DNA from: a virus
Taxonomy: Duplodnaviria; Heunggongvirae; Uroviricota; Caudoviricetes
Direction: 5' to 3' (one strand)
Length of the DNA stretch: 27,135 nucleotides
IMG/VR virus record: IMGVR_UViG_2529292920_000017
A program made the translations under genes and the position numbers. Of the stretch, positions 190-27,135 are shown one piece after another. The first letter of the stretch is position 1, and the number at the start of each line of letters is the position of its first letter. Under the pieces are notes generated by a model. That model saw nothing but the letters and a program-made list of their open reading frames with translations, had not been told where the DNA came from and did no database searches.

Positions 190-585
190 TCATTCGCTCC
201 CCTCTTTTTCCTTATTTCGTTGAACGCCAATTGCGACACACGTACTAAGCAAATCTTTACATTTCTCTACGTCTTCAGACTTACGCAATTTGATGCTTTT
301 TACAGACTGCGGGCTACTGTCCGTAGCACGATACATCGTTATTTCAATATCATTTCGGTCTAAGAGTCCCATAATGGCTTTTGCAACCTCCACACCCTTC
401 TTCGCGAAATCAAAGAACAGAGCAAGTTTATATGGATTTTCGACGGAAAAAACTTCAATTTTGCTAAAACCAACATCGTGTCGAGAAAAATATTGCTCAA
501 CCTCATCTCGAAGTTCTGGATCGCAGACAATGTCTATTCTCCAGTACTGACCTAAATGCAAATCGCTATTAACTGTTTTTTCCAC
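190..585 (-). CDS. hypothetical protein, AT-rich cargo gene distal to integrase
   Basis: ORF track 190..606 minus. Start reassigned to in-frame GTG at 583-585, preceded 5 nt upstream by AAGGAGG that overlaps the integrase stop codon. The ORF-track start at 606 is a TTG with no RBS. Visibly lower GC than flanking phage genes. No recognisable motif. Confidence 0.55.
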   Translation of the reverse strand: MEKTVNSDLHLGQYWRIDIVCDPELRDEVEQYFSRHDVGFSKIEVFSVENPYKLALFFDFAKKGVEVAKAIMGLLDRNDIEITMYRATDSSPQSVKSIKLRKSEDVEKCKDLLSTCVAIGVQRNKEKEGSE

Positions 586-595
586 AACATCCTCC

Positions 596-1570
596 TTACC
601 CAGCAATAGGATTAAATCTCACCGCATCCTGCAAGTAATCCGGCGCAAGATGGGCATAAATCATCGTTGTCTGAATCTTTGCGTGCCCCAGAATTTTCTG
701 GAGCGTCAGAATATTGCCGCCGTTCATCATGAAATGACTGGCGAAGGTGTGGCGCAGCGCATGAACAGCCTGGCCGTCAGGAACATCAGGTGCGACCGTT
801 TTGATGACATCGCGAACCAATGGATAATCCAGCGTCGGAAACACCAGTTTCCCGCCCCGTTTTTTGATCTTTTCAAACAGGCTTTCAGAAATAGGAACGG
901 TACGGTTTTTGCTGTTCTTCGTTTTTGAAAAAGTGATTCGACAATGAAGAACACGGCGCTGCTCCAGTGCCGCTACCTCGCCCCATCGCGCCCCGGTCGA
1001 CAGAAGGATTTCGACAGCCAGCCGTTCATCGGGATTTTCAGCCAGTGCATCCAGCAACTGAACACATTCAGACTTACTCAGATATCCCATTTCGCGCTCG
1101 TTAACCTTCATTCCTTTAAGGCCTTGAACGGGGTTATCGTTAAGAAAATGGCCGGATGAGATGAGTGCGGTAAACATCGCGCTTAACGCCCCAATCTCTC
1201 GATTTATGGTGCTGGGCTGTATCCCCTGCTCTATCCTGGACACACGTAGCTCGGTGAGCATCGTTGTATTAAGTTTATGCACGCACGGGTCATCCATTGC
1301 CTCACTCAAGCGCAGCAATTTAAGGCGCGTGTTATGCCCTGACTTCATTAGCTGACCGTGGTATTTCCACCACAAGTCAATAAGCACTGACAGCGGACGG
1401 CGATCAATGGAGTTTCCTTTCCACTCATTGTTATGCTGTTGCGCCAGCACCCACCGCTCATATAAAACTGCATCCGATTTCGTTTTAAATTTTTTACGAA
1501 TGCGTTTGCCTTTACGCCCCTCCGGGCGCATGTCAAGAAGATATCCTCCCGGAATTGATTTTATGCTCAT
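596..1570 (-). CDS. int: tyrosine site-specific integrase, P2 Int-like
   Basis: ORF track 596..1720 minus; start reassigned to ATG at 1568-1570 (MSIKSIPGGYLLDMRPEGRKGKRIRKKF), which matches the N-terminus of P2-family integrases as remembered. C-terminal region carries the tyrosine recombinase signature (HALRHTFASHFMMNGGNILTLQKILGHAKIQTTMIYAHL, R...HxxR...Y). Lies next to the repressor as in P2. Confidence 0.9.
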   Translation of the reverse strand: MSIKSIPGGYLLDMRPEGRKGKRIRKKFKTKSDAVLYERWVLAQQHNNEWKGNSIDRRPLSVLIDLWWKYHGQLMKSGHNTRLKLLRLSEAMDDPCVHKLNTTMLTELRVSRIEQGIQPSTINREIGALSAMFTALISSGHFLNDNPVQGLKGMKVNEREMGYLSKSECVQLLDALAENPDERLAVEILLSTGARWGEVAALEQRRVLHCRITFSKTKNSKNRTVPISESLFEKIKKRGGKLVFPTLDYPLVRDVIKTVAPDVPDGQAVHALRHTFASHFMMNGGNILTLQKILGHAKIQTTMIYAHLAPDYLQDAVRFNPIAG

Positions 1571-1619
1571 TCGTGAAACCCCAGCGTTACAAGACCACCA
1601 TGCCCCCAGCGCTCCATGA

Positions 1620-1928
1620 TTAGCCGGGCTGTGTGCCAGTCTTGCGGGGTTTTTGAGAAGGCGATGTGCTTTTTGGCCCATCAGGGGAGAGAGACGGACT
1701 GATCTGCCCAGCAGCCTCATTTGTTTTTCCCGTCATAAGCCAATTCATGTACTTAAAAAAGCGAGGGTGATTAACAATCTTGATAAGCACTTCGCCCCCT
1801 ATGTTTTCAATCCGCCCCGTTTCATAACGACGCAAAGTGCCGATAGGCACATCAATCAGGCCGCAAAATTCTTCGCGCGTTAAATCCTCTGATTCACGAA
1901 TCACTCTAATTTTTTCACCGATAAGCAT
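1620..1928 (-). CDS. C: immunity repressor, P2 C-type (short HTH repressor)
   Basis: ORF track 1620..1964 minus (GTG at 1964). Start reassigned to ATG at 1926-1928 giving about 102 aa: MLIGEKIRVIRESEDLTREEFCGLIDVPIGTLRRYETGR... This parallels the P2 C repressor (ISEKIVLMRKSEYLSRQQLADLTGVPYGTLSYYESGR, recalled from memory) in sequence and size. Divergent from the rightward early operon. Confidence 0.8.
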   Translation of the reverse strand: MLIGEKIRVIRESEDLTREEFCGLIDVPIGTLRRYETGRIENIGGEVLIKIVNHPRFFKYMNWLMTGKTNEAAGQISPSLSPDGPKSTSPSQKPRKTGTQPG

Positions 1929-2024
1929 TGACAGTGTTCCTATAAGTACACTAAGCTTGCGCACAAGGTGTACTTATAAGTACACCAGGTCACAAACAAC
2001 CACAGATAGCGCAGGTTATCACAC
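1929..2024. promoter_or_regulatory. divergent early promoter/operator region between C and the cox-like gene
   Basis: Perfect 18-bp palindrome GTGTACTTATAAGTACAC at 1968-1985 plus a half-site copy TATAAGTACAC at 1941-1951; TTGACA at 1928-1933. Sits between divergently transcribed repressor and early operon, the position of Pe/Pc and operators in P2. Confidence 0.6.
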
Positions 2025-2303
2025 ATGGCAAAAGTCCTGAACACACACGAACAGGCAGACTTTGAGCGTTTAGCAGCGTTCTATCCCTACCGCGATGAGC
2101 ATGGGTTACCAGTACTTGAAGAAAGCCTGAAAGATTACGCAAAGCGTACCAACCAAGCTGTTAACACAGTGAAAAGACAGGCTGACAGAGGTTCAATTCC
2201 CATCAACCAGGATGAAAAGAACTCAAGACGCACAGTAAATCTCTTCGCTCTTTTCCTGAAAACAATCAGGAGCGCAGAAAAATACGTGCAGATGACAAAA
2301 TAA
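2025..2303 (+). CDS. Cox/Apl-position small regulator (putative excisionase/transcriptional regulator)
   Basis: ATG at 2025, 92 aa, first gene of the rightward operon immediately opposite the repressor, same size class as P2 Cox. No sequence similarity to P2 Cox that I can confirm from memory; call is positional. Confidence 0.45.
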   Translation: MAKVLNTHEQADFERLAAFYPYRDEHGLPVLEESLKDYAKRTNQAVNTVKRQADRGSIPINQDEKNSRRTVNLFALFLKTIRSAEKYVQMTK

Positions 2304-2317
2304 CGAGGTGTCATTTT

Positions 2318-2656
2318 ATGCTGAAGCAACGCCGTAATTTTCGTACCGGAACAGAACGCCACGCTAACCGTTTCACTACCAGTGCATCACGCAGCAACAT
2401 CCGCTACAGCCTGAGTGATACACACGCAACGCCGGATGGCTACCCAGTAAAACAAATCGGCGAGCACGCCTGGCTGATTGAGAAAGCTGGAATCGTGATC
2501 CACAAATGCCCACGCAATCCGTTTACCGGAAACCGCATTTTTGCATTGAGCTGTGGCGACAATCAGTTCGGGCAGGATTTCACATTATACGAAGCACTTC
2601 GCACGGTTGATCGTCTGCTTCGCGGGCAAAGTTTTATTAAACAGGCTGATTTATAA
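2318..2656 (+). CDS. hypothetical early protein
   Basis: ATG at 2318 with GAGG about 10 nt upstream; 112-aa ORF in the rightward early operon. No recognised motif. Confidence 0.55.
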   Translation: MLKQRRNFRTGTERHANRFTTSASRSNIRYSLSDTHATPDGYPVKQIGEHAWLIEKAGIVIHKCPRNPFTGNRIFALSCGDNQFGQDFTLYEALRTVDRLLRGQSFIKQADL

Positions 2657-2666
2657 CGGGTGCTTT

Positions 2667-2954
2667 ATGACCAAAGACCATGCACAAGGTGTATTTATCC
2701 GTTTTATTGATTTTCGCGGTGAACTGTTATTACGTGCATCCGCTATTGACGGAGTGACTCCGGCGGGTAAAAACGGAGCCGACGAAGCCACTTACGTCTA
2801 TCTGAACGGCACGCGACTGCTTGTGGAACTTCCGTACCAGACCGTACGAGAAATCATTAGCGAAGCTGAAAAGGCACGCCAGGTTAATGGCGATGAACCC
2901 TATATCGAAATTATTTGTATGGATTCAGAAGCTGAAATACAGAAAGCAGATTAA
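2667..2954 (+). CDS. hypothetical early protein
   Basis: ORF track 2553..2954. The 5' part overlaps the previous gene in another frame, so start placed at internal ATG 2667 (MTKDHAQGVFIRF...). Weak RBS; start uncertain. Confidence 0.45.
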   Translation: MTKDHAQGVFIRFIDFRGELLLRASAIDGVTPAGKNGADEATYVYLNGTRLLVELPYQTVREIISEAEKARQVNGDEPYIEIICMDSEAEIQKAD

Positions 2955-2965
2955 AGGGTGTTGCA

Positions 2966-3208
2966 ATGGACAAAGAATATAAAACACTCATCAACAAAGC
3001 ACTTGAGCGTTTTTATTTTCGCTTAAGTGCATCAGGCGTTCATGCTGAACGTGCAGCCCGTGACTCATTGACCAGGGCAATCCGGAGTCTGTATGACGTG
3101 GCTTTTTACGCTGATGATCTGGATGCACTTAACGAACTTTCCGAGCTGATCTGTGCCGCAGAATGCGGAGAACATATTGAACCGTATAAGCTGGGGAATA
3201 TCGCATGA
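2966..3208 (+). CDS. hypothetical early protein
   Basis: ATG at 2966, 80-aa ORF, tightly packed after the previous gene. Confidence 0.55.
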   Translation: MDKEYKTLINKALERFYFRLSASGVHAERAARDSLTRAIRSLYDVAFYADDLDALNELSELICAAECGEHIEPYKLGNIA

Positions 3209-3318
3209 GTATATTTATCTCATGGCTTGTTCTGATTATTTCGGTGGCCTGCGCCATTGGGATTATGCGAATTATTAATTCAGTGAAAAAGATCGAGCGT
3301 TTTTTCTCTGATGAATAA
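3205..3318 (+). CDS. small hydrophobic peptide (37 aa), putative membrane peptide
   Basis: Translated by hand: MSIFISWLVLIISVACAIGIMRIINSVKKIERFFSDE. ATG at 3205 overlaps the stop of the upstream gene (ATGA). One predicted transmembrane helix followed by a charged tail. Below the ORF-track size cut-off. Confidence 0.35.
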   Translation: MSIFISWLVLIISVACAIGIMRIINSVKKIERFFSDE

Positions 3319-3411
3319 CGATACAAATAAAACATCAAATTAAATAAGAAAACGTGAAAACCATCCGTATTAACGGAGGTATTCGCACACGCAAATAACG
3401 GAGATACAAAA

Positions 3412-3822
3412 ATGCACGCAAAAGAAGAAGGTATCATCAGAGCACTGAAAGAAATTTCAAAGATGGAAAGCGAAGTAGCGAAAAAAGCCGTGGCCAATGC
3501 TCACATGGACGTCGCAACCCACACAATGATAGTCGCAAAAGTCACGGCAGAAGCTGCCAAAATCATCGAAGAACAGGGTGTGGAACTTGCGCTTCTCAAA
3601 ACTAAACCAGTCACCGGACTGGATTTATCTGACACCGGACGCCTTATTTACACTATTGGCTCGGAGCCACAGCGATACACCATTATCGCCGGATTACAGA
3701 ACAAATACCTGATCACTCCTCACCCCATAAGGGAATCAGCGCTTCTGACAAATCTCCGCCTGATAGAGCGCTCTCAAGTTGCATTCATTGATGACGCCCG
3801 ACACACCGTATTTAACGCATAG
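3412..3822 (+). CDS. hypothetical early protein
   Basis: ATG at 3412 with AACGGAG upstream; 136 aa. Preceded by an AT-rich intergenic region (3319-3411). Confidence 0.6.
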   Translation: MHAKEEGIIRALKEISKMESEVAKKAVANAHMDVATHTMIVAKVTAEAAKIIEEQGVELALLKTKPVTGLDLSDTGRLIYTIGSEPQRYTIIAGLQNKYLITPHPIRESALLTNLRLIERSQVAFIDDARHTVFNA

Positions 3823-3845
3823 GGTTACTGGACAAAGGGGGTGCA

Positions 3846-4049
3846 ATGGCAATTAAGCATTTTCCCGTCGTTCGCTTTACCTCCAGAGGGCGCGAATACG
3901 AGGTCGACGAACGCCTGATTACCACTATCGACAAACATCGTTCGGAAAAGGATGCACACCACATCTACCTCACTGACGGCACTTACTTCTGCGCCACCAA
4001 CGTGGCGCGGGTGAATCTTATCCGACAGGTACAGGAGCCACGCAGATGA
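3846..4049 (+). CDS. hypothetical early protein
   Basis: ATG at 3846 with AAAGGGGG upstream; 67 aa; its stop overlaps the next start. Confidence 0.55.
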   Translation: MAIKHFPVVRFTSRGREYEVDERLITTIDKHRSEKDAHHIYLTDGTYFCATNVARVNLIRQVQEPRR

Positions 4050-4312
4050 CCATTCTGGACTACATCGCTACTCATCCGGGTTGTAGCGGCGGAGAGATCG
4101 CCGCAGCACTGAATACTCCAACCACAGCCATTAATGCTGAGTTACGCCAACTTTGGCGCGGCGGCTTAGTCATCAGAACAAACCGCAGCACAGGTGGTCG
4201 CGCTCGCAAAACTGGAGGCCAGGCTTCTTACCACGTAAACCCGATGCCGTTCGGGTGTAGCAATCCACTTACTCACATGTTTAACCAGCTACTGAAGGAA
4301 GCCAGAACATGA
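4046..4312 (+). CDS. small DNA-binding protein candidate (winged-helix-like)
   Basis: ATG at 4046 with CAGGAG upstream; 88 aa. N-terminal MTILDYIATHPGCSGGEIAAALNTPTTAINAELRQLWRGGLVIR has the helix-turn-helix/wing pattern of small MarR/ArsR-like proteins. This is an inference from pattern only. Confidence 0.5.
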   Translation: MTILDYIATHPGCSGGEIAAALNTPTTAINAELRQLWRGGLVIRTNRSTGGRARKTGGQASYHVNPMPFGCSNPLTHMFNQLLKEART

Positions 4313-4569
4313 GCACCATCAACCACCAGAAGCTACGCGAACTGGCATTTGCCCTGCAACGAATGGCAACGCCTCAAAAATTACTGGCATTTCGCGCAAT
4401 GCTCTCGCCGTCTGCTGTGCTGGCACTGCTGGATGAGCTGGAGCACGCCAGAACCACGGCTCCTGCCATTCGCCTGACACTCCATCATGAAATCGCTGAT
4501 TTCTGCGCGACGTTGGAGGCACCCGGCGAACCGGAAACGCCGGAAGCAATACAGCAAGAGCTGCTGTAA
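4309..4569 (+). CDS. hypothetical early protein
   Basis: ATG at 4309 with AAGGAAG upstream; 86 aa; start overlaps the previous stop. Confidence 0.55.
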   Translation: MSTINHQKLRELAFALQRMATPQKLLAFRAMLSPSAVLALLDELEHARTTAPAIRLTLHHEIADFCATLEAPGEPETPEAIQQELL

Positions 4570-4694
4570 CGCATTGACAAGGTTTTTGATTTTTTCTGAA
4601 CCAGTAAGAAACCAGAACATGCACACACAAAAAAACCGCTTGCCATGCCGCAATCGGTCAGGTTACATTTCCGCTGCACCTCATAAAACGGGTG

Positions 4695-4922
4695 CCGGGA
4701 TTCTCAACCCGATACAGAGCAAAGCGCATAACCGCGCCAGCGGTTTTTTTGTGCGTACTGTATTGCCACGTCTTTTTCGCGTCAGAATTATGGCGGGGCG
4801 TACGGGGCCGACTTCGGTCGGGCCGGATTCTTTGCTCTCCGGTGTTGAGAACCCTGTACGTCTCGCCACCCCGAGATTCTCAACTCTGGATGGTGAGCTA
4901 TTTCTATCACCGAGCAAAGAGG
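4695..4922 (+). promoter_or_regulatory. structured non-coding leader/RNA candidate with repeated bipartite motif
   Basis: Three copies of the pair TTCTCAAC...GAGCAAAG: direct at 4701-4708/4717-4724, inverted at 4830-4837 (CTTTGCTC) and 4844-4851 (GTTGAGAA), direct at 4877-4884/4912-4919. A UUCG-tetraloop hairpin lies at 4805-4824 and a terminator hairpin at 4730-4750. The third GAGCAAAG overlaps the RBS (AAGAGG 4917-4922) of the ORF starting at 4930. Confidence 0.5.
4730..4750 (+). terminator. Rho-independent terminator candidate
   Basis: AACCGC-GCCA-GCGGTT stem-loop followed by seven T residues (4744-4750), in a non-coding stretch after the 4309..4569 gene. Confidence 0.6.
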
Positions 4923-4929
4923 CCACACC

Positions 4930-5160
4930 ATGGCAAACCGCAAACAACAGCGCGCATACGCTGCGCGTCGTCACATCCAGACTGAAATCAACCGTAGACT
5001 TTTCCGCGCATCACGCGTCGCGCAAATCATGCACATCAATATGCTGCATGAGCGCAGCCACGCGCTATCGAACATCTATTCCGCCTCTGTTTTCAGCTAT
5101 CTGGCGGATGATCTGCGCGAGCTGCAACAACTCTTCCAGCAGCAAAACAAACTCCATTAA
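4930..5160 (+). CDS. hypothetical small basic protein
   Basis: ATG at 4930 with AAGAGG 7 nt upstream; 76 aa, arginine-rich N-terminus (MANRKQQRAYAARRHIQTEINRR). Confidence 0.5.
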   Translation: MANRKQQRAYAARRHIQTEINRRLFRASRVAQIMHINMLHERSHALSNIYSASVFSYLADDLRELQQLFQQQNKLH

Positions 5161-5232
5161 TTCCTGTTCCGGGCCTTTCCTGCACCTTGCGGCGGGAGGC
5201 CTTCGCACATCTGTAGTAAAGAGAATTGCAGC

Positions 5233-5622
5233 ATGATTGACGCTCATGACTTCACAAGATGGGTGCGCACACAGGACACCCGTCTGGCTCCCGTTCTTCA
5301 GGGATTATTTGATCTCTACATCCGTGGTCGTGACAACAGAGCACGCACCACAAAACCGGAAAATGCAGACACCCTTTATTTCACAGTAGACGACTGCTAC
5401 CGCGTGGACTTCACACCACACGGGCTGGCGTTGCATTGCCTGATACCACACGGAGAATCACTGCTGGCGTATTACGACTCCCCGGCCTCCGTATTTGCGG
5501 CAATGCTGGCGCATCGCACTGCTGGCGGGTGTGCCTCGCTGAGTGAATACACCGCTGAATTTAACCGCCTTTCTGCCCTCTTCTCGCAGGAGTGGCAGCG
5601 CGTGACGGGATACCAGCCATGA
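5233..5622 (+). CDS. hypothetical protein immediately upstream of the replication initiator (P2 gene B position)
   Basis: ATG at 5233; 129 aa; stop overlaps the gene A start (ATGA at 5619-5622). Positional analogy to P2 B only; no motif recognised. Confidence 0.5.
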   Translation: MIDAHDFTRWVRTQDTRLAPVLQGLFDLYIRGRDNRARTTKPENADTLYFTVDDCYRVDFTPHGLALHCLIPHGESLLAYYDSPASVFAAMLAHRTAGGCASLSEYTAEFNRLSALFSQEWQRVTGYQP

Positions 5623-8447
5623 GTGAGTTTGCATGGAGCTGGAATGAACCACGACCAGCCATTGATCCGGCCAGATTTACGGAGCACAGGCAGGAAACTG
5701 AAACCGACCTACAACGCGCCATCCGTTACTACCTTGAGGCAGACAAAAAGGCTCTGGAAGAACAGGAAGCGAAGGAGGAAGCCTTTTTCGCACAATCCAC
5801 CGTGGGTAAAAAACTCATGGCATCCCTTGAGGAAGCCGGACAGCGTGAAAAGCTGGCACAAAGCATCATCAGCAAGCGTCAGGCAACAGAACAAGACCCG
5901 GTGGCCCGTGCTTTTGCCACACTGAAGGTGCTTCCCGTTTATCTGCGTGAACCTCTGAGCCGCCACCTCTCTTTCCTGCGCAAAAAACAGGAAGCCGATC
6001 GCCAGAAAGGCAAAAAGAGCTGGCAGGCTGAACGCTACGCGCGCGGAACCCTGCGCAAAATATTCGAACGCCTGGACCGCACCGATCACCGCTGGCTGAC
6101 ACCGGGTTATCGCTCCCTTGCCGGACGCGAACGCCTGGACGATTTGCTTTACCTGCCGCAGCTCAACAAACACCAGATACAGACGCTGGCCACCATGACG
6201 GCGGCGATGTTCAGCAGCACCTTCGAAAAACTCTGCGATGGCTTTGGTGCGACTGATGGCGAACTGACCATGGATGTAACGCTGAAGGCGTATCAGATGC
6301 TGGCCCGCATGGCGTTACACCTGCACGCCATGCCTCCACATTATGACGCACTGACAACAGACAAAGACCGGAGGAACGAACCGGACACGGAGCTGCTGCC
6401 GGGCGCAATCCTTCGCCTGACCTGTGCGGAATGGTGGAAACGCAAACTGTGGCTGTTACGTTGCGAGTGGAGAGAAGAACAACTCCGCGCCGCCTGTCTG
6501 GTTTCCAGAAAAACATCACCCTATCTGAGCCAGGACGCGTTAAGCGAGTTTCGCGCACAGCGCGAGAAAACACGCGATTTCCTGAAAAGTTTCATGCTGG
6601 AAAACGAAGACGGGTTCACGATTGATCTCGAGACAGTGTATTACGCGGGAGTAAGTAACCCGGTTCACCGTAAGGCAGAAATGATGGCCACCATGAAGGG
6701 GCTGGAACTTCTGGCCGAAGCCCGTGGCGACAAAGCGGTGTTTCTGACTGTCACCTGCCCGTCAAAATACCACGCCACAACAGAGAACGGTCATCCGAAT
6801 CCCAAATGGAACGGGGCCACCATGCGCGACTCCAGCGATTACCTGGTTAACACGTTTTTTGCGGCGGTCCGCAAGAAACTGAACCGCGACGGCCTGCGCT
6901 GGTATGGCATCCGCACGGTGGAGCCTCACCATGACGGCACCGTGCACTGGCATATGATGGTCTTTGCTCATCCGGAAGAAATCGACACCATTGTGTCCCA
7001 CACCCGCGATATTGCCATTCAGGAAGACCGCCACGAGCTGGGCAATGATATTACTCCGCGCTTTAAGGTGGAGTATGTCGACGGCTCAAAAGGCACGCCA
7101 ACCAGCTACATCGCCACCTACATCGGAAAGAACCTGGACAGCCGCGCCGTGGATGGCATCGACCCGAAAACGGGCAAGCCACGCGTTGACCACGAAACCG
7201 GAAAATCAATGGCCGAGAGCGTGGAACGCGCCATCGGCTGGGCACGCCTTCACCGGGTCCGCCAGTTCCAGTTCTTTGGCATCCCCTCCCGTCAGGTATG
7301 GCGTGAACTCCGCCGCCTTGCCAGCCAGATGGCACGCAACCCGGAAGGCCCGCAACGGCTGAAGGATGATGCAATGGATGCGGTACTCGCTGCCGCTGAT
7401 GCCGGGTGTTTTGCCACCTACATTGAGAAACAGGGCGGCGTACTTGTTCCACGCAAAGACTACCTGATTCGCACCGCCTACGACCTCGCAGATGAGCTGA
7501 ACGATTACGGCGAACAGAGCGTACAGATTTACGGGATTTGGTCACCACTCATCGGGGAATCCTCCCGTGTGTGCACGCACCCGGATAACTGGAAGCTGGT
7601 AAGACGTAAACCGGAAGCGGAAGACAGCACCCGCGAAAATGGTTTTGACCTTCAGGGCGGCCCTGCCGCCCCTTGGACTCGTGGCAATAACTGTCCCCGT
7701 GTACAGGAAACGGACAACAACGGGACAGAACAGCCAGCACCGTGGTCGCAGCTCCCTGACGGCGTTGAAGTGAACGAATGGATGCGCTCACTGAAACGGC
7801 ACGAACGCCGGGCGCTGATGCGTTCGCTTCGTGACAAACAGGCAAAAAACAGCCGTGATGAAATGCAGAGCTGGACACAGAGCCGCAAACAGCAGCGGCC
7901 TTTGCCTGATAACCACGAACTACTCGCTAAAGAATGGCGGGAGTCTGCTGAATCTCTCGGCCTGCATATCGGTGAACAGCAGATGCAGCATCTGTTACGG
8001 GGCGGCAGTCTGTACGTTGACGGCAGCATCATTGCACCGCAGGGATTTGAAATTGTACGCAAACCGGATACCCGACCGGACAGCCGGATCACGCAGCTCT
8101 GGCAGCGCCTGAGCCGTAACCACGGCGTAAGCAGTACGGAGATCCGCCATAACCCGGTCGCCAGCTATCTGGAACAGCTGGGGACATCAGACCCCGAAGC
8201 CGCCGCACGCCTGGCATCCACACTTCAGCAAGACCAGAACACCATGAAAACACCCGTTACCGTGCTTTCTGACATGCTGCGCGCCATCCGCGACGCAGAG
8301 CACGCACAGAGAATCAGTGAAACCACTGAACGCGCCCGCCGCAAAGCAGACCTGCTGCGGGGTGGCCTGACCAGTGGAAACAAAAAACAGACAGAAACGG
8401 GATTCACAAATCCCGTAAATGAGCAAAAAACGCGCCGCGATATATGA
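5619..8447 (+). CDS. A: replication initiation protein, rolling-circle HUH endonuclease (P2 gene A family)
   Basis: ORF track 5592..8447 (GTG); start placed at ATG 5619 (MSEFAWSWNEP...). Contains HUH-type motif VHWHMMVF (around 6945-6968) and paired active-site tyrosines YIATYIGK (around 7105-7128), as in P2 A/phiX174 A-type initiators. About 942 aa, with a long low-complexity R/Q/E-rich C-terminal region. Confidence 0.85.
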   Translation: MSEFAWSWNEPRPAIDPARFTEHRQETETDLQRAIRYYLEADKKALEEQEAKEEAFFAQSTVGKKLMASLEEAGQREKLAQSIISKRQATEQDPVARAFATLKVLPVYLREPLSRHLSFLRKKQEADRQKGKKSWQAERYARGTLRKIFERLDRTDHRWLTPGYRSLAGRERLDDLLYLPQLNKHQIQTLATMTAAMFSSTFEKLCDGFGATDGELTMDVTLKAYQMLARMALHLHAMPPHYDALTTDKDRRNEPDTELLPGAILRLTCAEWWKRKLWLLRCEWREEQLRAACLVSRKTSPYLSQDALSEFRAQREKTRDFLKSFMLENEDGFTIDLETVYYAGVSNPVHRKAEMMATMKGLELLAEARGDKAVFLTVTCPSKYHATTENGHPNPKWNGATMRDSSDYLVNTFFAAVRKKLNRDGLRWYGIRTVEPHHDGTVHWHMMVFAHPEEIDTIVSHTRDIAIQEDRHELGNDITPRFKVEYVDGSKGTPTSYIATYIGKNLDSRAVDGIDPKTGKPRVDHETGKSMAESVERAIGWARLHRVRQFQFFGIPSRQVWRELRRLASQMARNPEGPQRLKDDAMDAVLAAADAGCFATYIEKQGGVLVPRKDYLIRTAYDLADELNDYGEQSVQIYGIWSPLIGESSRVCTHPDNWKLVRRKPEAEDSTRENGFDLQGGPAAPWTRGNNCPRVQETDNNGTEQPAPWSQLPDGVEVNEWMRSLKRHERRALMRSLRDKQAKNSRDEMQSWTQSRKQQRPLPDNHELLAKEWRESAESLGLHIGEQQMQHLLRGGSLYVDGSIIAPQGFEIVRKPDTRPDSRITQLWQRLSRNHGVSSTEIRHNPVASYLEQLGTSDPEAAARLASTLQQDQNTMKTPVTVLSDMLRAIRDAEHAQRISETTERARRKADLLRGGLTSGNKKQTETGFTNPVNEQKTRRDI

Positions 8448-8523: not shown

Positions 8524-9483
8524 ATGAAAATTTGTATCGATGACGGCTCCACCAACATCAAGCTGGCATGGACTGAGAACGGCGAACGCCGCAACGCCAT
8601 CAGCCCGAACAGCTTCAAGTCGGAATGGTCTGCGCCGTTCGGTGGCACGCAGCCCGCGAACTACATGCTTGATGGCGTGCGCTATGGTTTTGATCCGGTC
8701 AGCGATCGCTTTGTCCAGACGACCGACACGCAATACCAGTACAGCGATGTGAATGTCATTGCCATTCATCACGCGCTGGTCAAATCAGGCATCACACCAC
8801 AGGAGGTGGATGTGGTTGTCACCCTGCCACTGAGCGAATATTTCGACACAAACGCACAGCCGGACATGGCCAACATCAACCGCAAAAAAGCAAACGTCAT
8901 GCGCCCGGTGGCGTACCAGAACGGAAAAGCATTCACTATCCGTAACGTACGGGTTATGCCTGAATCCATTCCGGCTGGTTTTAAAGCACTGGCTGACATG
9001 AGTCCGTTTGAATCCCTGCTGATTGTGGATTTAGGCGGAACCACGCTGGATGTGGCAAAGGTTCAGGGACAACTGGCAGGTATCAGCCAGGTGTTTTGCG
9101 ATCCACACGTAGGCGTTTCCCTGATGGCCGATGCCGTACTGTCGGTGATGGCCACTAACGGTATGCGTACCAGTCACCACATCGCCAATACCATTATCGA
9201 ACATCGCCATGATGAAGCCTGGCTGCGCCAGCACATCCACAATGACGCGCATTACGCCAGCCTGATGGCGGTTATTCGTGAAAAGGAAGAAACACTGAAA
9301 CAACGCGTGATCCGCGCGCTGGCGGGTTTTTCGGGTTACGGGCGGGTGATGGTTGTCGGTGGCGGGGCGGAGATTGTGGCACCCGCTATCCGCGAAGCCT
9401 GCGGAGTTAATGCGACTTTCATCGCGGACGGGGTGCCACAGTTTGCTCTGGTTAATGGGCTGTACGCAATGGACAAGGAGTAA
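8524..9483 (+). CDS. parM: actin-like segregation ATPase ParM/StbA
   Basis: ATG at 8524 with AAGGAAAAG upstream; 319 aa. N-terminus MKICIDDGSTNIKLAW and internal LLIVDLGGTTLDVA are the actin-fold phosphate-1 and phosphate-2 motifs. From memory the protein aligns along its length with plasmid R1 ParM (MLVFIDDGSTNIKLQW..., ...VMPESIPAG..., ...GGGAE...). Confidence 0.85.
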   Translation: MKICIDDGSTNIKLAWTENGERRNAISPNSFKSEWSAPFGGTQPANYMLDGVRYGFDPVSDRFVQTTDTQYQYSDVNVIAIHHALVKSGITPQEVDVVVTLPLSEYFDTNAQPDMANINRKKANVMRPVAYQNGKAFTIRNVRVMPESIPAGFKALADMSPFESLLIVDLGGTTLDVAKVQGQLAGISQVFCDPHVGVSLMADAVLSVMATNGMRTSHHIANTIIEHRHDEAWLRQHIHNDAHYASLMAVIREKEETLKQRVIRALAGFSGYGRVMVVGGGAEIVAPAIREACGVNATFIADGVPQFALVNGLYAMDKE

Positions 9484-9862: not shown

Positions 9863-10234
9863 ATGCAACACATTGACAGAGAAAAAGCGCAGCGACTGAT
9901 TGAGCGGATGGAAGCGCTGGCGAAAGAAGAAAATGTCAACATCCAAAAAATAGCTGAATGTGGCCAGATAGTTCTTCGTCGTGAAAAAGACCTCAAACAA
10001 CTGATGTCTGGCGAAACCAGCAAAACATGGACTTCAGGCGAGAAGACGGTTTATTGCAGTTTCTGCAATAAATCCCAGTACGAAGTCACAAAGGTGATTG
10101 CCGGACCGTCTGTTTACATCTGCAATGAATGCGTGGATTTGTGCAATGAAATTATCAGGAAAGAAGTGACAGACAAAAAGGAAAAAACGCATGAACAGAA
10201 AACAGAAACAAGAGTTGAAATACTTCTTACGTAA
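9863..10234 (+). CDS. stand-alone ClpX-type C4 zinc-finger protein
   Basis: ATG at 9863 with AAAGGGGA upstream; 123 aa. C-terminal [38 protein letters not shown] is near-identical in pattern to the ClpX N-terminal zinc-binding domain ([38 protein letters not shown], from memory). There is no AAA+ module. N-terminal 60 aa is a charged, probably helical region. AT-rich gene. Confidence 0.75.
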
Positions 10235-21769: not shown

Positions 21770-22370
21770 TTCGTTGTTACCACCATCAGCCAGCAATTTC
21801 ATGCGTTGTGCCGAAGCCGTCGGAACACGCATTACAGACATTCCGGTAGACCTCAACACGCTGTGGTCGCCGGACACCTGCCCGGTGCATCTGCTGCCTT
21901 ATCTCGCCTGGGCGTTTTCCGTTGACCGCTGGGATCGCAACTGGCCGGAAGAGACAAAGCGACAGGTGATTCGTGATGCATGGCTGATACACCGACACAA
22001 AGGGACCATCAGCGCACTGCGAAGAGCCGTGGAGCCTCTCGGCTACCTGATTGAAGTAAAGGAGTGGTGGCAACTCAACGAGGAGCCAGGAACATTTCGC
22101 ATTGTTGTCGGAGTACTTGATCAGGGCATCACCGATGAAATGTATCAGGAACTTGAGCGCCTTATTGCGGATGCAAAACCAGTAAGTCGCCATCTGACGG
22201 GGCTGGCGATCAGCCTGAGTGTGAACGGAAAGATTTTCGTTGGTACGGGATGCTATCACGGCGATGCCCTGACGGTTTATCCCTACACCCCGGAGTCCAT
22301 TATTGTCGAAGGGGATTATTTCCCTGCCCCGGCCATTCATTTAATTGATAATCTGAGAGTAAACGCATGA
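21762..22370 (+). CDS. I: baseplate protein I
   Basis: ORF track 21729..22370; ATG at 21762 overlaps the J stop. LWSPDTCPVHLLPYLAWAFSVDRWD...ERLIADAKPVSRHL matches P2 I as recalled. Confidence 0.85.
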   Translation: MSNSLLPPSASNFMRCAEAVGTRITDIPVDLNTLWSPDTCPVHLLPYLAWAFSVDRWDRNWPEETKRQVIRDAWLIHRHKGTISALRRAVEPLGYLIEVKEWWQLNEEPGTFRIVVGVLDQGITDEMYQELERLIADAKPVSRHLTGLAISLSVNGKIFVGTGCYHGDALTVYPYTPESIIVEGDYFPAPAIHLIDNLRVNA

Positions 22371-23971
22371 CAGTGAAATACTACGCCATTCTGACTAATC
22401 AGGGCGCGGCACGACTGGCTAACGCGACGATGCTCGGCAGTAAGCTGAATCTGACGCAAATGGCCGTTGGTGATGCAAATGGTGTGTTACCAACACCAGA
22501 CCCTGCACAAACAAAACTGATTAACCAGAAACGCATTGCACCGCTGAATCTTCTGAGTGTTGACCCTAACAATCAGAGCCAGATTATTGCGGAGCAAATC
22601 ATCCCTGAAAACGAGGGAGGATTCTGGATCCGTGAGATTGGTCTTTATGATGATGAAGGTGTACTCATTGCGGTGGCAAACTGCCCGGAAACGTACAAAC
22701 CGCAGTTGCAGGAAGGCAGTGGACGCACCCAGACTATCCGCATGATTCTGGTTGTCACGAACACCGAAGCCATCACGCTGAAAATCGACCCGTCTGTGGT
22801 TCTGGCAACCCGCAAATATGTGGATGATAAAATCTCAGAGCACGAACAGTCACGACGTCACCCGGACGCCTCGCTGACCGTAAAAGGTTTTACTCAGTTA
22901 AGCAGTGCAATTAACAGTGAATCAGAAACACTGGCCGCAACACCGAAAGCGGTTAAGGCTGCATATGACCTGGCTAACGGGAAATATACCGCCCAGAACG
23001 CCACCACTACACAAAAAGGAATTGTTCAGCTCAGTAGCGCCACGAACAGCACGTCTGAAACGCTGGCAGCGACACCAAAATCTGTTAAGGCGGTAATGGA
23101 TGAAACGAACAAGAAAGCACCATTAAACAGCCCGGCACTGACCGGAACGCCAACAACACCAACAGCGCCACAGGGGACTAATAGTACCCAGATCGCAAGC
23201 ACGGCTTTCGTTATGGCCGCGATTGCCGCACTTGTAGATTCGTCACCTGATGCACTGAACACGCTGAACGAACTGGCTGCGGCGCTGGGCAATGACCCGA
23301 ATTTTGCGACCACCATGACTAACGCGCTTGCGGGTAAGCAACCGAAGGATGCCACCCTGACGGCGCTGGCAGAGCTTGCTACATCAGCAGATAAACTCCC
23401 ATATTTTACAGGGGCAGATCGTGCCGCGTTAACCGCGTTGACAAGTGTTGGACGTGCCATTCTTGGTAAAACCAGCACTCAGGGAGTTCTTGATTACCTT
23501 GGTTTGGGGGAAGGCTCTGCGCTGCCCGTTGGTGTGCCCGTTCCATGGCCCTCAGCCACGCTGCCAACGGGGTGGCTGAAATGTAACGGCGCAGCATTTT
23601 CTTCTGAAATGTACCCCAATCTGGCAAAGGCCTACCCCACCAATAAATTACCGGATTTACGGGGCGAATTTATTCGCGGCTGGGATGACGGACGGGGCGT
23701 TGATAATGGGCGCAACCTACTGTCTGCACAGTCTGACGCTATTCAGAATATAGTTGGCACTTTTGGGCGTACTCAGCTTTTTAAAGATGCGCTTAATTCA
23801 GGACCATTTAGTCAAACTGACTCTATATTATCAGTAGGCTTACAACCAACTGAGATCATTGAAGGATATGGTGCTTCTGTATGGACATTCGACGCCTCTC
23901 GCTCAGTTCGCACAGCATCTGAAACACGCCCCCATAACATTGCGTTTAATTACATCGTAAGGGCAGCATGA
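22367..23971 (+). CDS. H: tail fiber protein H: constant N-terminal part fused to the currently expressed C-terminal cassette (Hv1)
   Basis: ATG at 22367 overlapping the I stop; 534 aa. N-terminus MTVKYYAILTNQGAARLANA is the conserved P2-type fiber N-terminus. Internal tandem roughly 30-aa repeats (LSSAINSESETLAATPKAVKAA / LSSATNSTSETLAATPKSVKAV). From about 23500 the sequence (GLGEGSALPVGVPVPWPSAT...ETRPHNIAFNYIVRAA) belongs to the cassette family repeated downstream. Confidence 0.9.
   Translation: MTVKYYAILTNQGAARLANATMLGSKLNLTQMAVGDANGVLPTPDPAQTKLINQKRIAPLNLLSVDPNNQSQIIAEQIIPENEGGFWIREIGLYDDEGVLIAVANCPETYKPQLQEGSGRTQTIRMILVVTNTEAITLKIDPSVVLATRKYVDDKISEHEQSRRHPDASLTVKGFTQLSSAINSESETLAATPKAVKAAYDLANGKYTAQNATTTQKGIVQLSSATNSTSETLAATPKSVKAVMDETNKKAPLNSPALTGTPTTPTAPQGTNSTQIASTAFVMAAIAALVDSSPDALNTLNELAAALGNDPNFATTMTNALAGKQPKDATLTALAELATSADKLPYFTGADRAALTALTSVGRAILGKTSTQGVLDYLGLGEGSALPVGVPVPWPSATLPTGWLKCNGAAFSSEMYPNLAKAYPTNKLPDLRGEFIRGWDDGRGVDNGRNLLSAQSDAIQNIVGTFGRTQLFKDALNSGPFSQTDSILSVGLQPTEIIEGYGASVWTFDASRSVRTASETRPHNIAFNYIVRAA
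23487..23512 (+). other. candidate recombination site A (inside H, constant/variable boundary)
   Basis: TTCTTGATTACC-TT-GGTTTGGGGGAA. The right half and central TT are identical to the downstream cassette junctions; the left half is unique H sequence. Confidence 0.5.
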
Positions 23972-23990
23972 AAACGTTGGTTTGGGGGAA
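23965..23990 (+). other. candidate recombination site B (cassette junction)
   Basis: AGCATGAAAACG-TT-GGTTTGGGGGAA. The left half contains the stop codon of the preceding cassette (GCA TGA); the right half encodes the start of the next cassette (LGEG). Confidence 0.55.
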
Positions 23991-24515
23991 GGCTCTGCAC
24001 TGCCCGTTGGTGTACCTGTTCCGTGGCCCTCAGCCACTCCACCAACGGGCTGGCTGAAATGCAACGGCGCAGCATTTTCTTCTGAAGATTACCCCAAATT
24101 GGCACAGGCTTACCCCGCGAACAAATTACCGGATCTACGGGGTGAATTTATCCGTGGCTGGGATGATGGACGTGGCTTGGATGCTGGGCGTGCCTTGCTA
24201 AGTCTTCAGGATGACTCTTTTGAAGCGCACAGGCATGAGTCCTTTTTTTATGCGGGTATTTCACGTAATGAGACCCCATTAAAAAATCTTCCAAGTTCAG
24301 ACGAGATGCTGACTTTAAGTTCCACAACTAATGCCTTGTCCCCGGACAGTATTGATGCCACCAACTCGTTAATTGGTAATGACGATTACAACTGTCTTAT
24401 CGAAGGGAATAAAAATAACAAACGAACAGCGACAGGACTGAGTACCAGTATTGTCGGCACAGCAGAAACACGCCCCCGCAACGTTGCATTCAATTACATC
24501 GTAAGAGCTGCATGA
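23979..24515 (+). CDS. silent tail-fiber C-terminal cassette Hv2 (promoterless; no ATG)
   Basis: ORF track 23982..24515 starts at TTG. Shares the N-terminal roughly 65 aa (GEGSALPVGVPVPWPSATPPTGWLKCNGAAFSSE.YP.LA.AYP.NKLPDLRGEFIRGWDDGRG) and C-terminal ETRPRNVAFNYIVRAA with the H C-terminus; the middle is unique. Protein identical to the minus-strand cassette at 26602..27135. Confidence 0.7.
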   Translation, partial: GLGEGSALPVGVPVPWPSATPPTGWLKCNGAAFSSEDYPKLAQAYPANKLPDLRGEFIRGWDDGRGLDAGRALLSLQDDSFEAHRHESFFYAGISRNETPLKNLPSSDEMLTLSSTTNALSPDSIDATNSLIGNDDYNCLIEGNKNNKRTATGLSTSIVGTAETRPRNVAFNYIVRAA

Positions 24516-24534
24516 AAACGTTGGTTTAGGGGAA
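24509..24534 (+). other. candidate recombination site C (cassette junction)
   Basis: TGCATGAAAACG-TT-GGTTTAGGGGAA; same architecture as site B. Confidence 0.55.
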
Positions 24535-25001
24535 GGCTCTGCACTGCCCGTTGGTGTGCCCGTTCCGTGGCCCTTAGCAACACCACCAACGGGCTGGCTG
24601 AAATGTAACGGTGCAGCATTTTCTTCTGAAATGTACCCCAATCTGGCAAAAGCCTACCCCACCAATAAATTACCGGATTTACGGGGCGAATTTATTCGTG
24701 GCTGGGATGATGGGCGAGGAATTGATGCAGCACGCGCTTTATTGAGCATTCAAACCGGGATGTTGGAAAAACACCGCCATATTGTTGTAGCTAACGATGG
24801 ATATGACACAAAGGATGAATGGGAGTTGGCCACGATTTTCAAAAAACATATACACAAGGCAGGGGGCTTGATGCCACAAATACAGGAGGGAGTTTGATTC
24901 CATCACCAACGCTTCATTCACGAGGAAGTATTGGTAACACAGGTGGTAGTGAAACCCGCCCCCGCAATATTGCATTTAACTATATCGTGAGGGCGGCTTA
25001 G
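24523..25001 (+). pseudogene. tail-fiber C-terminal cassette Hv3, frameshifted
   Basis: The conserved cassette N-terminus (ORF 24556..24897) and the conserved C-terminus ETRPRNIAFNYIVRAA (ORF 24819..25001) are in different frames. The frame changes in the region of an A6 tract at 24841-24846; adding one A would join them into one cassette-length ORF. Confidence 0.6.
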
Positions 25002-25007
25002 TTATAT

Positions 25008-25619
25008 TCAACTGGCTGCTGCCAGTGGTATTTCCGGCAAGTTGATATCTGGTGCCATGTTTATATCCATTGCGTTCAGCGCGTCTATATAATCCAGCAC
25101 GGCGTTAAGCCGGGTGGTTTCTGCCTGCGTCAACTTCCGCCCGGCCTGCAACTTCAACTGAATCAGACTTATGGAAGCCATTGCCGCATCAGCCAGTGAC
25201 TGGCGCTTGGTTTCTGCCGCTTCTACTGCGGCACTATGTTGTGCCTCAGTATCTGTCACCCATTTTTCACCATCCCATTTATCGTATGGTGTCGACGGGG
25301 AGATAGTGGTTGTATTTTTCGGGTAGTCACCTAGCGTCGTGATTTCTTCGGTGTTTCCCGTGTCAGTGTTATAGACGGTTTCACCACGATGATCTGGCGT
25401 ATACTCCCATGAATTTAAATTCTCCGAACGGCGGATAGCATAGCCCGCTTTATGTGCGCCCGGGGCATCTAAACAGGAATTTGCCGGAATACCGACACCC
25501 GCAGCAAGATATTCAGTTGATTCGGAAATATATTCCCGTGTCTCACCATCATAGTTATAAACGACGATGTTTCCTGCCTGTACGGCAATAAGGTCATCAT
25601 TTAATATCGCGTTATTCAT
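25008..25619 (-). CDS. tail fiber assembly protein (Tfa, P2 gpG functional analogue)
   Basis: 203 aa, ATG at 25617-25619 overlapping the stop of cassette Hv4 (TAATG). C-terminal region KRQSLADAAMASISLIQLKLQAGRKLTQAETTRLNAVLDYIDAL is the conserved Tfa chaperone domain pattern. Encoded on the strand opposite to H. Confidence 0.8.
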   Translation of the reverse strand: MNNAILNDDLIAVQAGNIVVYNYDGETREYISESTEYLAAGVGIPANSCLDAPGAHKAGYAIRRSENLNSWEYTPDHRGETVYNTDTGNTEEITTLGDYPKNTTTISPSTPYDKWDGEKWVTDTEAQHSAAVEAAETKRQSLADAAMASISLIQLKLQAGRKLTQAETTRLNAVLDYIDALNAMDINMAPDINLPEIPLAAAS

Positions 25620-26080
25620 TATGCGGTTCTCACAATATAATTGAAGGCAATATTGCGTGGGCGGGTTTCATTCCCCTCTGAGGATTCCGTTCTGTATTGA
25701 CTGGTAAATCTACCGTTAATTGCACCTTGCCGGACGGCGTTATCTGTCGACAACAGACTATCCCCGCCTTTGTCATTTGGCACCAGTACCGTGTTATCCC
25801 ACGCATCCCATGACCGAATATTATGATAATGACTTCCTGTTAACCACCCCTGCATGCTTAAGATGACCCTTCCGGCATCCACCCCGCGCCCATCATCCCA
25901 GCCACGGATAAATTCACCGCGTAAGTCTGGTAATTTATTGGTGGGGTAAGCCATTGCCAGTCTGGGATACATTTCAGAAGAAAATGCTGCGCCGTTACAT
26001 TTCAGCCACCCCGTTGGCGGCGTGGCTGAGGGCCATGGAACAGGTACACCAACGGGCAGTGCAGAGCCTTCTCCTAAACC
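25619..26080 (-). CDS. silent tail-fiber C-terminal cassette Hv4 (minus strand, directly upstream of tfa)
   Basis: ORF track 25619..25972 begins at an internal ATG, but the same frame stays open back to site D and encodes the conserved cassette N-terminus (GEGSALPVGVPVPWPSATPPTGWLKCNGAAFSSEMYP...). Ends ETRPRNIAFNYIVRTA; unique middle. Confidence 0.65.
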   Translation of the reverse strand, partial: GLGEGSALPVGVPVPWPSATPPTGWLKCNGAAFSSEMYPRLAMAYPTNKLPDLRGEFIRGWDDGRGVDAGRVILSMQGWLTGSHYHNIRSWDAWDNTVLVPNDKGGDSLLSTDNAVRQGAINGRFTSQYRTESSEGNETRPRNIAFNYIVRTA

Positions 26081-26094
26081 AACGTTTTCATGCG
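26069..26094 (-). other. candidate recombination site D (inverted orientation)
   Basis: Plus strand reads TTCTCCTAAACC-AA-CGTTTTCATGCG, the reverse complement of the site B/C pattern. Confidence 0.55.
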
Positions 26095-26594
26095 GCTCTT
26101 ACGATGTAATTAAATGCAACGTTGCGAGGGCGAGTTTCTGTACCTACATTTCCACTAATTTCACCAAACCGTTTTACATTACGAGAGCTAATGGCTCGTA
26201 GTGAGGAAGGCACATTTAAACCGGGTTCGTCTGTTTTAACTATTCCCCCGTCCCCGTATGTAGCCAGTATTCCAGGGTTTACTCCTTCCCGTGTACTTCC
26301 CGCGGCAAGTCCATCCCCGGTCCATAATTCCATATAGTGTGCATGATCCAAAATTGTGTGTGGCTGCCAATTAAGCAGAGCGCGGCCAGCATCCACCCCG
26401 CGCCCATCATCCCAGCCGCGAATAAATTCGCCCCGTAAATCCGGTAATTTATTGGCGGGGTAGGCCTTTGCCAGATTGGGGTACATTTCAGAAGAAAATG
26501 CTGCACCGTTACATTTCAGCCAGCCCGTTGGCGGCGTGGCTGAAGGCCATGGAACGGGCACACCAACGGGCAGCGCCGAGCCTTCCCCTAAACC
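26088..26594 (-). CDS. silent tail-fiber C-terminal cassette Hv5 (minus strand)
   Basis: ORF track 26088..26561. Conserved cassette N- and C-termini (…ETRPRNVAFNYIVRAA) with a unique middle (LLNWQPHTILDHAHYMELWTGDG...). Confidence 0.65.
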   Translation of the reverse strand, partial: GLGEGSALPVGVPVPWPSATPPTGWLKCNGAAFSSEMYPNLAKAYPANKLPDLRGEFIRGWDDGRGVDAGRALLNWQPHTILDHAHYMELWTGDGLAAGSTREGVNPGILATYGDGGIVKTDEPGLNVPSSLRAISSRNVKRFGEISGNVGTETRPRNVAFNYIVRAA

Positions 26595-26608
26595 AACGTT
26601 TTCATGCA
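26583..26608 (-). other. candidate recombination site E (inverted orientation)
   Basis: Plus strand reads TTCCCCTAAACC-AA-CGTTTTCATGCA. Confidence 0.55.
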
Positions 26609-27135
26609 GCTCTTACGATGTAATTGAATGCAACGTTGCGGGGGCGTGTTTCTGCTGTGCCGACAATACTGGTACTCAGTCCTGTCGCTGTTCGTTTGTT
26701 ATTTTTATTCCCTTCGATAAGACAGTTGTAATCGTCATTACCAATTAACGAGTTGGTGGCATCAATACTGTCCGGGGACAAGGCATTAGTTGTGGAACTT
26801 AAAGTCAGCATCTCGTCTGAACTTGGAAGATTTTTTAATGGGGTCTCATTACGTGAAATACCCGCATAAAAAAAGGACTCATGCCTGTGCGCTTCAAAAG
26901 AGTCATCCTGAAGACTTAGCAAGGCACGCCCAGCATCCAAGCCACGTCCATCATCCCAGCCACGGATAAATTCACCCCGTAGATCCGGTAATTTGTTCGC
27001 GGGGTAAGCCTGTGCCAATTTGGGGTAATCTTCAGAAGAAAATGCTGCGCCGTTGCATTTCAGCCAGCCCGTTGGTGGAGTGGCTGAGGGCCACGGAACA
27101 GGTACACCAACGGGCAGTGCAGAGCCTTCCCCCAA
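26602..27135 (-). CDS. silent tail-fiber C-terminal cassette Hv6 (minus strand), reaches the window edge
   Basis: ORF track 26602..27135. The translated protein is identical to cassette Hv2 (23982..24515), so the two form a long inverted duplication. The window ends inside the next junction site (TTCCCCCAA at 27127-27135). Confidence 0.65.
   Translation of the reverse strand: MGEGSALPVGVPVPWPSATPPTGWLKCNGAAFSSEDYPKLAQAYPANKLPDLRGEFIRGWDDGRGLDAGRALLSLQDDSFEAHRHESFFYAGISRNETPLKNLPSSDEMLTLSSTTNALSPDSIDATNSLIGNDDYNCLIEGNKNNKRTATGLSTSIVGTAETRPRNVAFNYIVRAA

Follow-up and report, generated by a model that had tools for sequence, protein, structure and literature searches.

Alternative tail-fibre tips between inverted crossover sites in a P2-like Escherichia coli prophage

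The stretch of DNA analysed here, IMG/VR record IMGVR_UViG_2529292920_000017 (27,135 nucleotides, hereafter the window), is a P2-like prophage in which the tail-fibre gene H is followed by an array of alternative 3' ends, separated by short crossover sites in both orientations. We conclude that this locus very probably serves a P2-like (Gemsvirus-type) E. coli prophage as a host-range switch for its tail fibre, working by multiple inversions under a serine invertase of the Din family. Within the Din-invertase family the locus is a multiple-inversion member of the p15B Min type, and not an R64 shufflon. Loci of this kind are already known and common in E. coli, and the window holds an ordinary example. 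A first-pass annotation, made from the letters of the window alone, had proposed a programmed switch with more than two states; this proposal is borne out by permutations among sibling loci, and by four coexisting variants in a relative from enteropathogenic E. coli (EPEC).

Tip cassettes and crossover sites

The H open reading frame (22367-23971, plus strand) contains an internal crossover site, with its core dinucleotide TT at 23499-23500. The constant N-terminal part of the fibre, 377 codons (22367-23498, plus strand), includes the tail-collar-fibre N-terminal domain PF12571 (E 1.6e-62) and fibre repeats PF03406; H also has a Collar domain (Pfam), and its 5' end is 98.7% identical to Escherichia phage 500465-2 (Gemsvirus). 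Downstream of codon 377, six cassette copies are found, three per strand, together with one tail-fibre assembly gene (Tfa). Cassette coordinates are given from the base after each core. Cassette A (type c4, 23501-23971, plus strand; 156 amino acids and a stop) is the one fused to H at present. It is followed on the plus strand by cassette B (type c2, 23979-24515), which is silent, encodes 178 amino acids from the core, and has a Collar domain (Pfam E 1.9e-14) with homology to the collar of T4 gp37 and gp12. Cassette C (type c3, 24523-25001, plus strand), frameshifted and with no site after it, forms the left end of a central head-to-head piece, whose right end is cassette D (type c1, 25619-26080, minus strand; 153 amino acids), always linked to Tfa. 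Cassettes E (type c5, 26088-26594; 168 amino acids) and F (type c2, 26602-27135), both on the minus strand, complete the array.

The first-pass annotation had counted six C-terminal versions. There are indeed six copies, and since cassette F is an exact inverted copy of cassette B, they amount to five distinct tips (c4, c2, c5, c1 and c3). Positions 23982-24539 and 26578-27135 form an inverted repeat identical at 558 of 558 nucleotides, the 100% identity running through site E down to 26578. The frameshift that had been noticed in one plus-strand cassette was located in cassette C, where one nucleotide is lost from a run of seven A: the window has A6 at 24836-24841, and intact copies elsewhere have A7. 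This may be a sequencing error or the mark of a slippage-prone homopolymer.

Read in frame 0 from the core, all six cassettes (6/6) give GLGEGSALPVG..., and in H the core TT makes up the second and third letters of the codon for Leu-378, so that any fusion between H and a cassette is in frame, as had been anticipated. Conserved ends around unique middles had been described as well, and this is what pairwise comparison of the cassettes gives, with 89-95% identity over the first ~73 amino acids, 88-100% over the last 16, and dissimilar middles. A Collar domain is present in each cassette. At their conserved ends, the cassettes show homology to the collar part of the T4 gp37 tip (2xgf, E 3.6e-18), to the short tail fibre 9cuy (E 9e-19) and to T4 gp12; the C-terminal segment ETRPRN(I/V)AFNYIVR aligns with the returning strand. 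In PHROGs, all cassettes map to the C-terminal end of tail-fibre families. Because the conserved ends match T4-type fibre tips and PHROG C-terminal ends, the variable middle plausibly forms the receptor-binding tip.

The sole Tfa of the locus (203 amino acids, 25008-25619, minus strand; Pfam Caudo_TAP E 3.4e-32, PHROG 105 E 1.8e-91) starts by overlapping the stop codon of cassette D in a TAATG, and therefore looks like the partner of c1. One Tfa was present in each locus that we mapped (20 loci, see below), and it was always joined to c1.

The motif ACSTTGGTTTRGGRGAAGG was found five times in the window (three on the plus and two on the minus strand), versus no match in any of 100 shuffled sequences, which rules out chance repeats as the source of the sites. 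These are five complete sites of 26 bp, and a sixth is cut by the window edge. Each has two 12-bp halves of imperfect symmetry with a 2-bp core between them, in the form xxxxTGAAAACG TT GGTTTRGGRGAA. The plus strand carries sites A, B and C, and the minus strand carries sites D, E and the cut sixth site, so that inverted sites are present on one molecule. Site A (23487-23512; TTCTTGATTACC TT GGTTTGGGGGAA) is fixed inside H, at the same position as the mapped EPEC endpoint 1891695, and departs from the common form by ATTACC in its left half instead of AAAACG. Site B (23965-23990; AGCATGAAAACG TT GGTTTGGGGGAA) contains the TGA stop of cassette A in its left half. Sites C (24509-24534) and E (26583-26608) both read TGCATGAAAACG TT GGTTTAGGGGAA, and site D (26069-26094) reads CGCATGAAAACG TT GGTTTAGGAGAA. 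What remains of the sixth site is a right half-site remnant at 27127-27135. The window is identical to contig AIEZ01000015.1 of the draft E. coli assembly GCA_000249135.2, which stops 2 nucleotides further, 1 nucleotide before the core of this sixth site.

The annotation had placed the same 26-bp element at every junction. This was found for the five complete sites, apart from the left half of site A, and no site is present at the boundaries between cassette C and Tfa or between Tfa and cassette D. Its description of each junction as a stop codon combined with the in-frame start of the next cassette was half right: the left half-site does carry the TGA stop of the preceding cassette, but the ATG that overlaps it is off-frame for the next one, and only TTG or GTG is in frame. 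The likeness to sites of the hix/gix/cix type was confirmed by alignment with the annotated sites of P1 (NC_005856), cixL (TCAATCCTAAACC TT GGTTTAAGAGAAC) and cixR (reverse complement, GTTATCCAATACC TT GGTTTAAGAGAAC), in which the TT core is the same and the GGTTT half-site near-identical. The window sites also match those that Forde et al. tabulated for prophage Phi2 of strain EC958, as well as the Sandmeier consensus given there, which covers Mu, P1, e14, p15B and S. boydii (PMC4134206).

Variants of the right half-site and nearby single nucleotide polymorphisms (SNPs; GGTTTGGGGG, GGTTTAGGGG, GGTTTAGGAG), in the first ~100 nucleotides of the cassettes (e.g. 23501-23600 and 23979-24080), have no tie to cassette type across genomes, which points to conversion or homologous exchange acting locally beside the sites. 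Over the ~200-nucleotide conserved starts, SNPs are weakly linked to cassette type close to the site, and more strongly towards the variable part.

Sibling loci, the invertase and known systems

Sites were mapped and cassettes typed (c1 to c10) in 20 loci. All 20 have the same layout, namely site A, a rightward chain of cassettes, the central piece, a leftward chain, a terminal site and the invertase. The central piece is either [c3> Tfa< c1<] or its flipped form [c1> Tfa> c3<], where arrowheads give the orientation, and its two cassette starts face outward. Crossover sites are retained in 20 loci out of 20; malformed junctions are found in none of them, nor are any produced by the inversion model described below. 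Between 2 and 8 sites were counted in P2-like prophages, and 12 in a P1-like plasmid (L009); loci with six sites are common (e.g. L008, L014, L015, L017, L018 and L020-L022). Types c1, c2, c4, c5 and c6 are each found fused to H, internal and terminal across genomes, and c3 is found fused to H and internal. Two siblings have the set c4, c5, c2, c3 and c1 in common with the window, in other orders and orientations: L003 reads c4 c5 c2 [c3 Tfa< c1<], L004 reads c4 [c1 Tfa c3<] c5< c2<, and the window reads c4 c2 [c3 Tfa< c1<] c5< (c2<). The three are 2-3 legal inversions apart.

To count the arrangements, inversion was allowed in the model between oppositely oriented sites only. This gives 4 states for three sites, 12 for four, 48 for five and 240 for six. 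The 4 states for three sites are the number measured in EPEC, and p15B is said to form 240 isomers, the same figure as that of the model for six sites.

No recombinase had been noticed in the window, and a tblastn search of the window with the sibling invertase indeed gave no match. The only tyrosine recombinase of the window is the prophage integrase (596-1720, minus strand; Pfam). The invertase gene is most probably missing because the contig ends at the sixth site. The exact H protein of the window is encoded on six public contigs, AIEZ01000015.1 among them, and the others extend past the last cassette. In sibling contigs, the last cassette is followed by a terminal site with the outer half tagggataaagacgAAAACG and, ~55 nucleotides beyond, by a gene for a 199-amino-acid protein with Resolvase and HTH_7 domains. 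This protein is intact, at least 197/199 identical, and directly past the terminal site in 18 of the 18 sibling P2-like loci mapped. It matches the Mu Gin structures 4m6f and 3uj3 (E ~1e-91) and is 73% identical to P1 Cin. The 5' region of its gene is identical to the annotated P1 cin enhancer at 57 of 72 positions, against 67% for the whole gene. Judging from these siblings, the recombinase of the window locus almost certainly lies beyond the right edge, and the serine recombinase of Hin/Gin/Cin type that had been expected there is what all of them encode. Past the contig end, the sequence would continue with ...CGTTTTCGTCTTTATCCCTA, and then with the 199-amino-acid invertase gene.

The closest system in which inversion was measured is that of the P2-like prophage of EPEC E2348/69. 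Goldberg et al. (2014) mapped two overlapping inversions there (NC_011601, 1891695-1893703 and 1892127-1893703), and by paired-end sequencing and polymerase chain reaction found four coexisting variants with three alternative C-termini, in a locus that they named a shufflon (PMC4272514). In our mapping, the prophage of EPEC O127:H6 E2348/69 shares 98.9% identity with the window from J to H. Its locus has the order c6> [c3> Tfa< c1<], followed by the terminal site and the invertase, with cores at 1891695, 1892134 and 1893695; the reported endpoints 1891695, 1892127 and 1893703 lie on the mapped sites. It resembles the window in prophage type, site A, internal and terminal sites, and the central piece [c3 -> <- Tfa-c1], and its invertase is identical to that of the sibling loci at 197 of 199 residues. 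It differs by having 3 sites, 3 tips (c6, c3 and c1) and 4 states, as compared with 5 or 6 sites, 5 tips and 48 or 240 states in the window. As inversion was measured in this homologue, the window holds a larger version of a measured system.

The first-pass annotation had also likened the locus to p15B Min, and this likeness stands, with more than two sites, overlapping segments and five tips in frame with H. The Min system of plasmid p15B (Sandmeier et al. 1990, 1992) has several fibre-region sites in both orientations and overlapping segments, as in the window, and a Din-family invertase, as in the sibling loci. In p15B, a P1-like prophage plasmid, the fibre gene is of the S type, whereas in the window the constant part comes from P2 gene H and the prophage is chromosomal. 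The same cassette types are found at ~87% identity on P1-like plasmids of E. coli, where there are up to 12 sites. On the plasmid of locus L009 (NZ_CP196102.1, locus 262-6639), a P1-like phage-plasmid, 12 sites and 12 cassettes were counted, of types common with P2-like prophages, three types being present twice.

The two-state switches, Mu G/Gin, P1 C/Cin, e14 P/Pin, and EC958 Phi1, Phi2 and Phi4 (PMC4134206), have the 26-bp site type and a site inside the fibre gene in common with the window, and the recombinase family in common with its sibling loci. These systems (Mu, P1, e14, EC958) have two sites and a separate assembly gene for each variable part (U, U'), whereas the window has many sites, one Tfa only, which is tied to a single cassette, and Collar-domain tips of 143-178 amino acids. 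The R64 shufflon also chooses one of several C-termini by multiple inversions, but it does so with a tyrosine recombinase acting at different sites, and on a pilus adhesin instead of a phage fibre.

In the strain of the window, the invertase would act on any two sites in inverted orientation, swapping strands at their TT cores and thereby flipping the intervening DNA, probably assisted by Fis bound at an enhancer in the 5' coding region of the invertase gene. The tip cassettes are promoterless units, with a right half-site at their start and a left half-site carrying the stop codon at their end. Each could be joined in frame to codon 377 of H, giving fibres with different receptor-binding tips and a common collar domain, and host range would change with the tip. 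Five sites would allow 48 isomers, and six would allow 240.

Weighing other explanations

Several observations weigh against an active switch. Both the invertase and the terminal site are absent from the window itself, and cassette C is frameshifted. The SNPs of the conserved ~200-nucleotide cassette starts are mosaic, with only a loose link to cassette type. Both in the isomer of the window and in 11 of the 20 mapped loci, Tfa lies antisense to H, which makes functional fibres harder to account for in those states; a promoter scan for the antisense Tfa gave matches no more numerous than in shuffled sequences. The mosaic SNPs mean that gene conversion, or homologous recombination, also acts at these loci and could explain some rearrangements, although this linkage pattern shows conversion over time and does not separate site-specific from homologous exchange as the driver of flips.

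An explanation that builds on these points is that the cassettes are static relics of duplications, the invertase being missing or dead, and that differences in order were made by slow homologous recombination between inverted repeats. Such repeats are present, 214-290 nucleotides long and 84-92% identical, and the lack of a recombinase in the window, the mosaic SNP pattern and the frameshifted cassette would all fit. Yet none of the 20 loci has lost its sites, and all 18 sibling P2-like loci encode an intact invertase; junctions are well formed in every locus, as site-specific inversion alone predicts. Moreover, the homologous EPEC locus inverts at a measurable frequency in single colonies, with endpoints at the sites. 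In EC958, inversions of 2-3 kb led to alternative PacBio contigs for prophages that include Phi2, whose sites are of the type seen in the window, about half of the reads had the other orientation in Phi1, and Din invertases can work in trans from other prophages (PMC4134206). We thus regard static relics as quite improbable. A shufflon of the R64 type, with an Rci-like tyrosine recombinase acting in trans or encoded past the edge, had been left as an option by the first-pass annotation, and has a general likeness in its favour (several segments, both orientations, alternative C-termini on one protein). It is rejected on site type and recombinase family, and we give it almost no weight: the sites are homologous to P1 cix and are built like Din sites, 12-2-12 around a TT core, a serine Resolvase and HTH_7 protein close to Gin and Cin is found beside the terminal site in every sibling locus, and the integrase is the only tyrosine recombinase in the window.

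Cassette F raises another question, as it might be an assembly chimera. The strain would then have five sites and five cassettes (c4, c2, c3, c1 and c5), with mixed isomers in the culture, and the assembler would have run from cassette E into an inverted cassette B and stopped at the site. The 558/558 identity starts at the contig end and ends where cassette-specific SNPs begin, and the contig end is 1 nucleotide from the core. L003 and L004, with an identical H protein and the same cassette set, have one c2 each. The c5<c2< junction is two inversions away from the five-site reading, and the c2->c3 and c2->c5 junctions occur together in no record among the top matches in 5,426 complete E. coli genomes. 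Forde et al. warn that merging alternative contigs makes artefactual duplications (PMC4134206). Breaks of this sort are seen elsewhere too: the 90% protein cluster of H contains many partial proteins of 375-379 amino acids from dozens of contigs, and as these end near codon 377, many other draft assemblies also break at site A.

Against a chimera, exact inverted c2 duplicates (0/537 mismatches) are found in the finished sequences AP031375.1 (L002) and CP196102.1 (plasmid, L009), so that exact identity does not discriminate a real copy from a chimera, and unequal exchange between two isomers on sister chromosomes would give the same duplication. All in all, we rate a chimeric cassette F at a little below an even chance. 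The conclusion on the system is the same in both cases, and if cassette F were a chimera, this would in turn be evidence that inversion took place in the culture that was sequenced.

The assembly gene, the prophage and implications

As concerns the antisense Tfa, read-through from a converging tail operon was considered and is a weak candidate, as a terminator-like hairpin with a 12-bp stem lies between U and the invertase. The FI-FII-E-T-U tail block is opposite in strand to H in L003 (14924-20499), in all sibling loci and in phage 500465-2 (L024), and co-directional with it in P2 (L023). With the FI-U operon inverted relative to P2, two late operons converge on the invertible region. A 2024 preprint reports invertases in this P2 hotspot, with adjacent genes inverted too.

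We can offer a speculative reading of these observations, which we consider unlikely as a whole. The short collar tips would be chaperone-independent except for c1, or else the converging operons would transcribe the chaperone whichever way it lies; moreover, pairs of exact inverted copies like B and F would arise by exchange between isomers on sister chromosomes. If this were true, isomer exchange would be a built-in means of cassette gain and loss, and could explain the range of 2 to 12 sites.

The remainder of the window is that of a P2-like prophage, with the P2 gene order and hallmark proteins (Int, A, Q, P, O, N, M, L ... V, W, J, I, H). Portal and terminase genes are on the minus strand, and head, lysis and baseplate genes then run rightward up to I and H; portal, terminase, capsid, baseplate and tail families of the contig are of P2 type. 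Between replication gene A (5592-8447, Pfam GPA) and portal gene Q, a gene for a ParM/StbA-like actin (8524-9483, plus strand; Pfam E 7e-82) and one for a ClpX-type zinc finger protein (9863-10234, plus strand) were observed. In P2, the old/tin accessory-gene hotspot lies between gene A and portal gene Q. PADLOC gave no defence-system match for either protein.

The window locus leaves the current understanding of how these switches work unchanged. Its practical side concerns assembly and annotation: such loci break short-read assemblies at the crossover sites and can create spurious duplications, and their cassette fragments get annotated as separate 'phage tail protein' genes. As to the biology of these phages, the short receptor-binding tips of chromosomal P2-like prophages of E. 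coli are drawn from a pool that P1-like phage-plasmids use as well. A single prophage can have five tips on offer, in 48-240 DNA arrangements, which bears on the prediction of host range for phages and tailocins.

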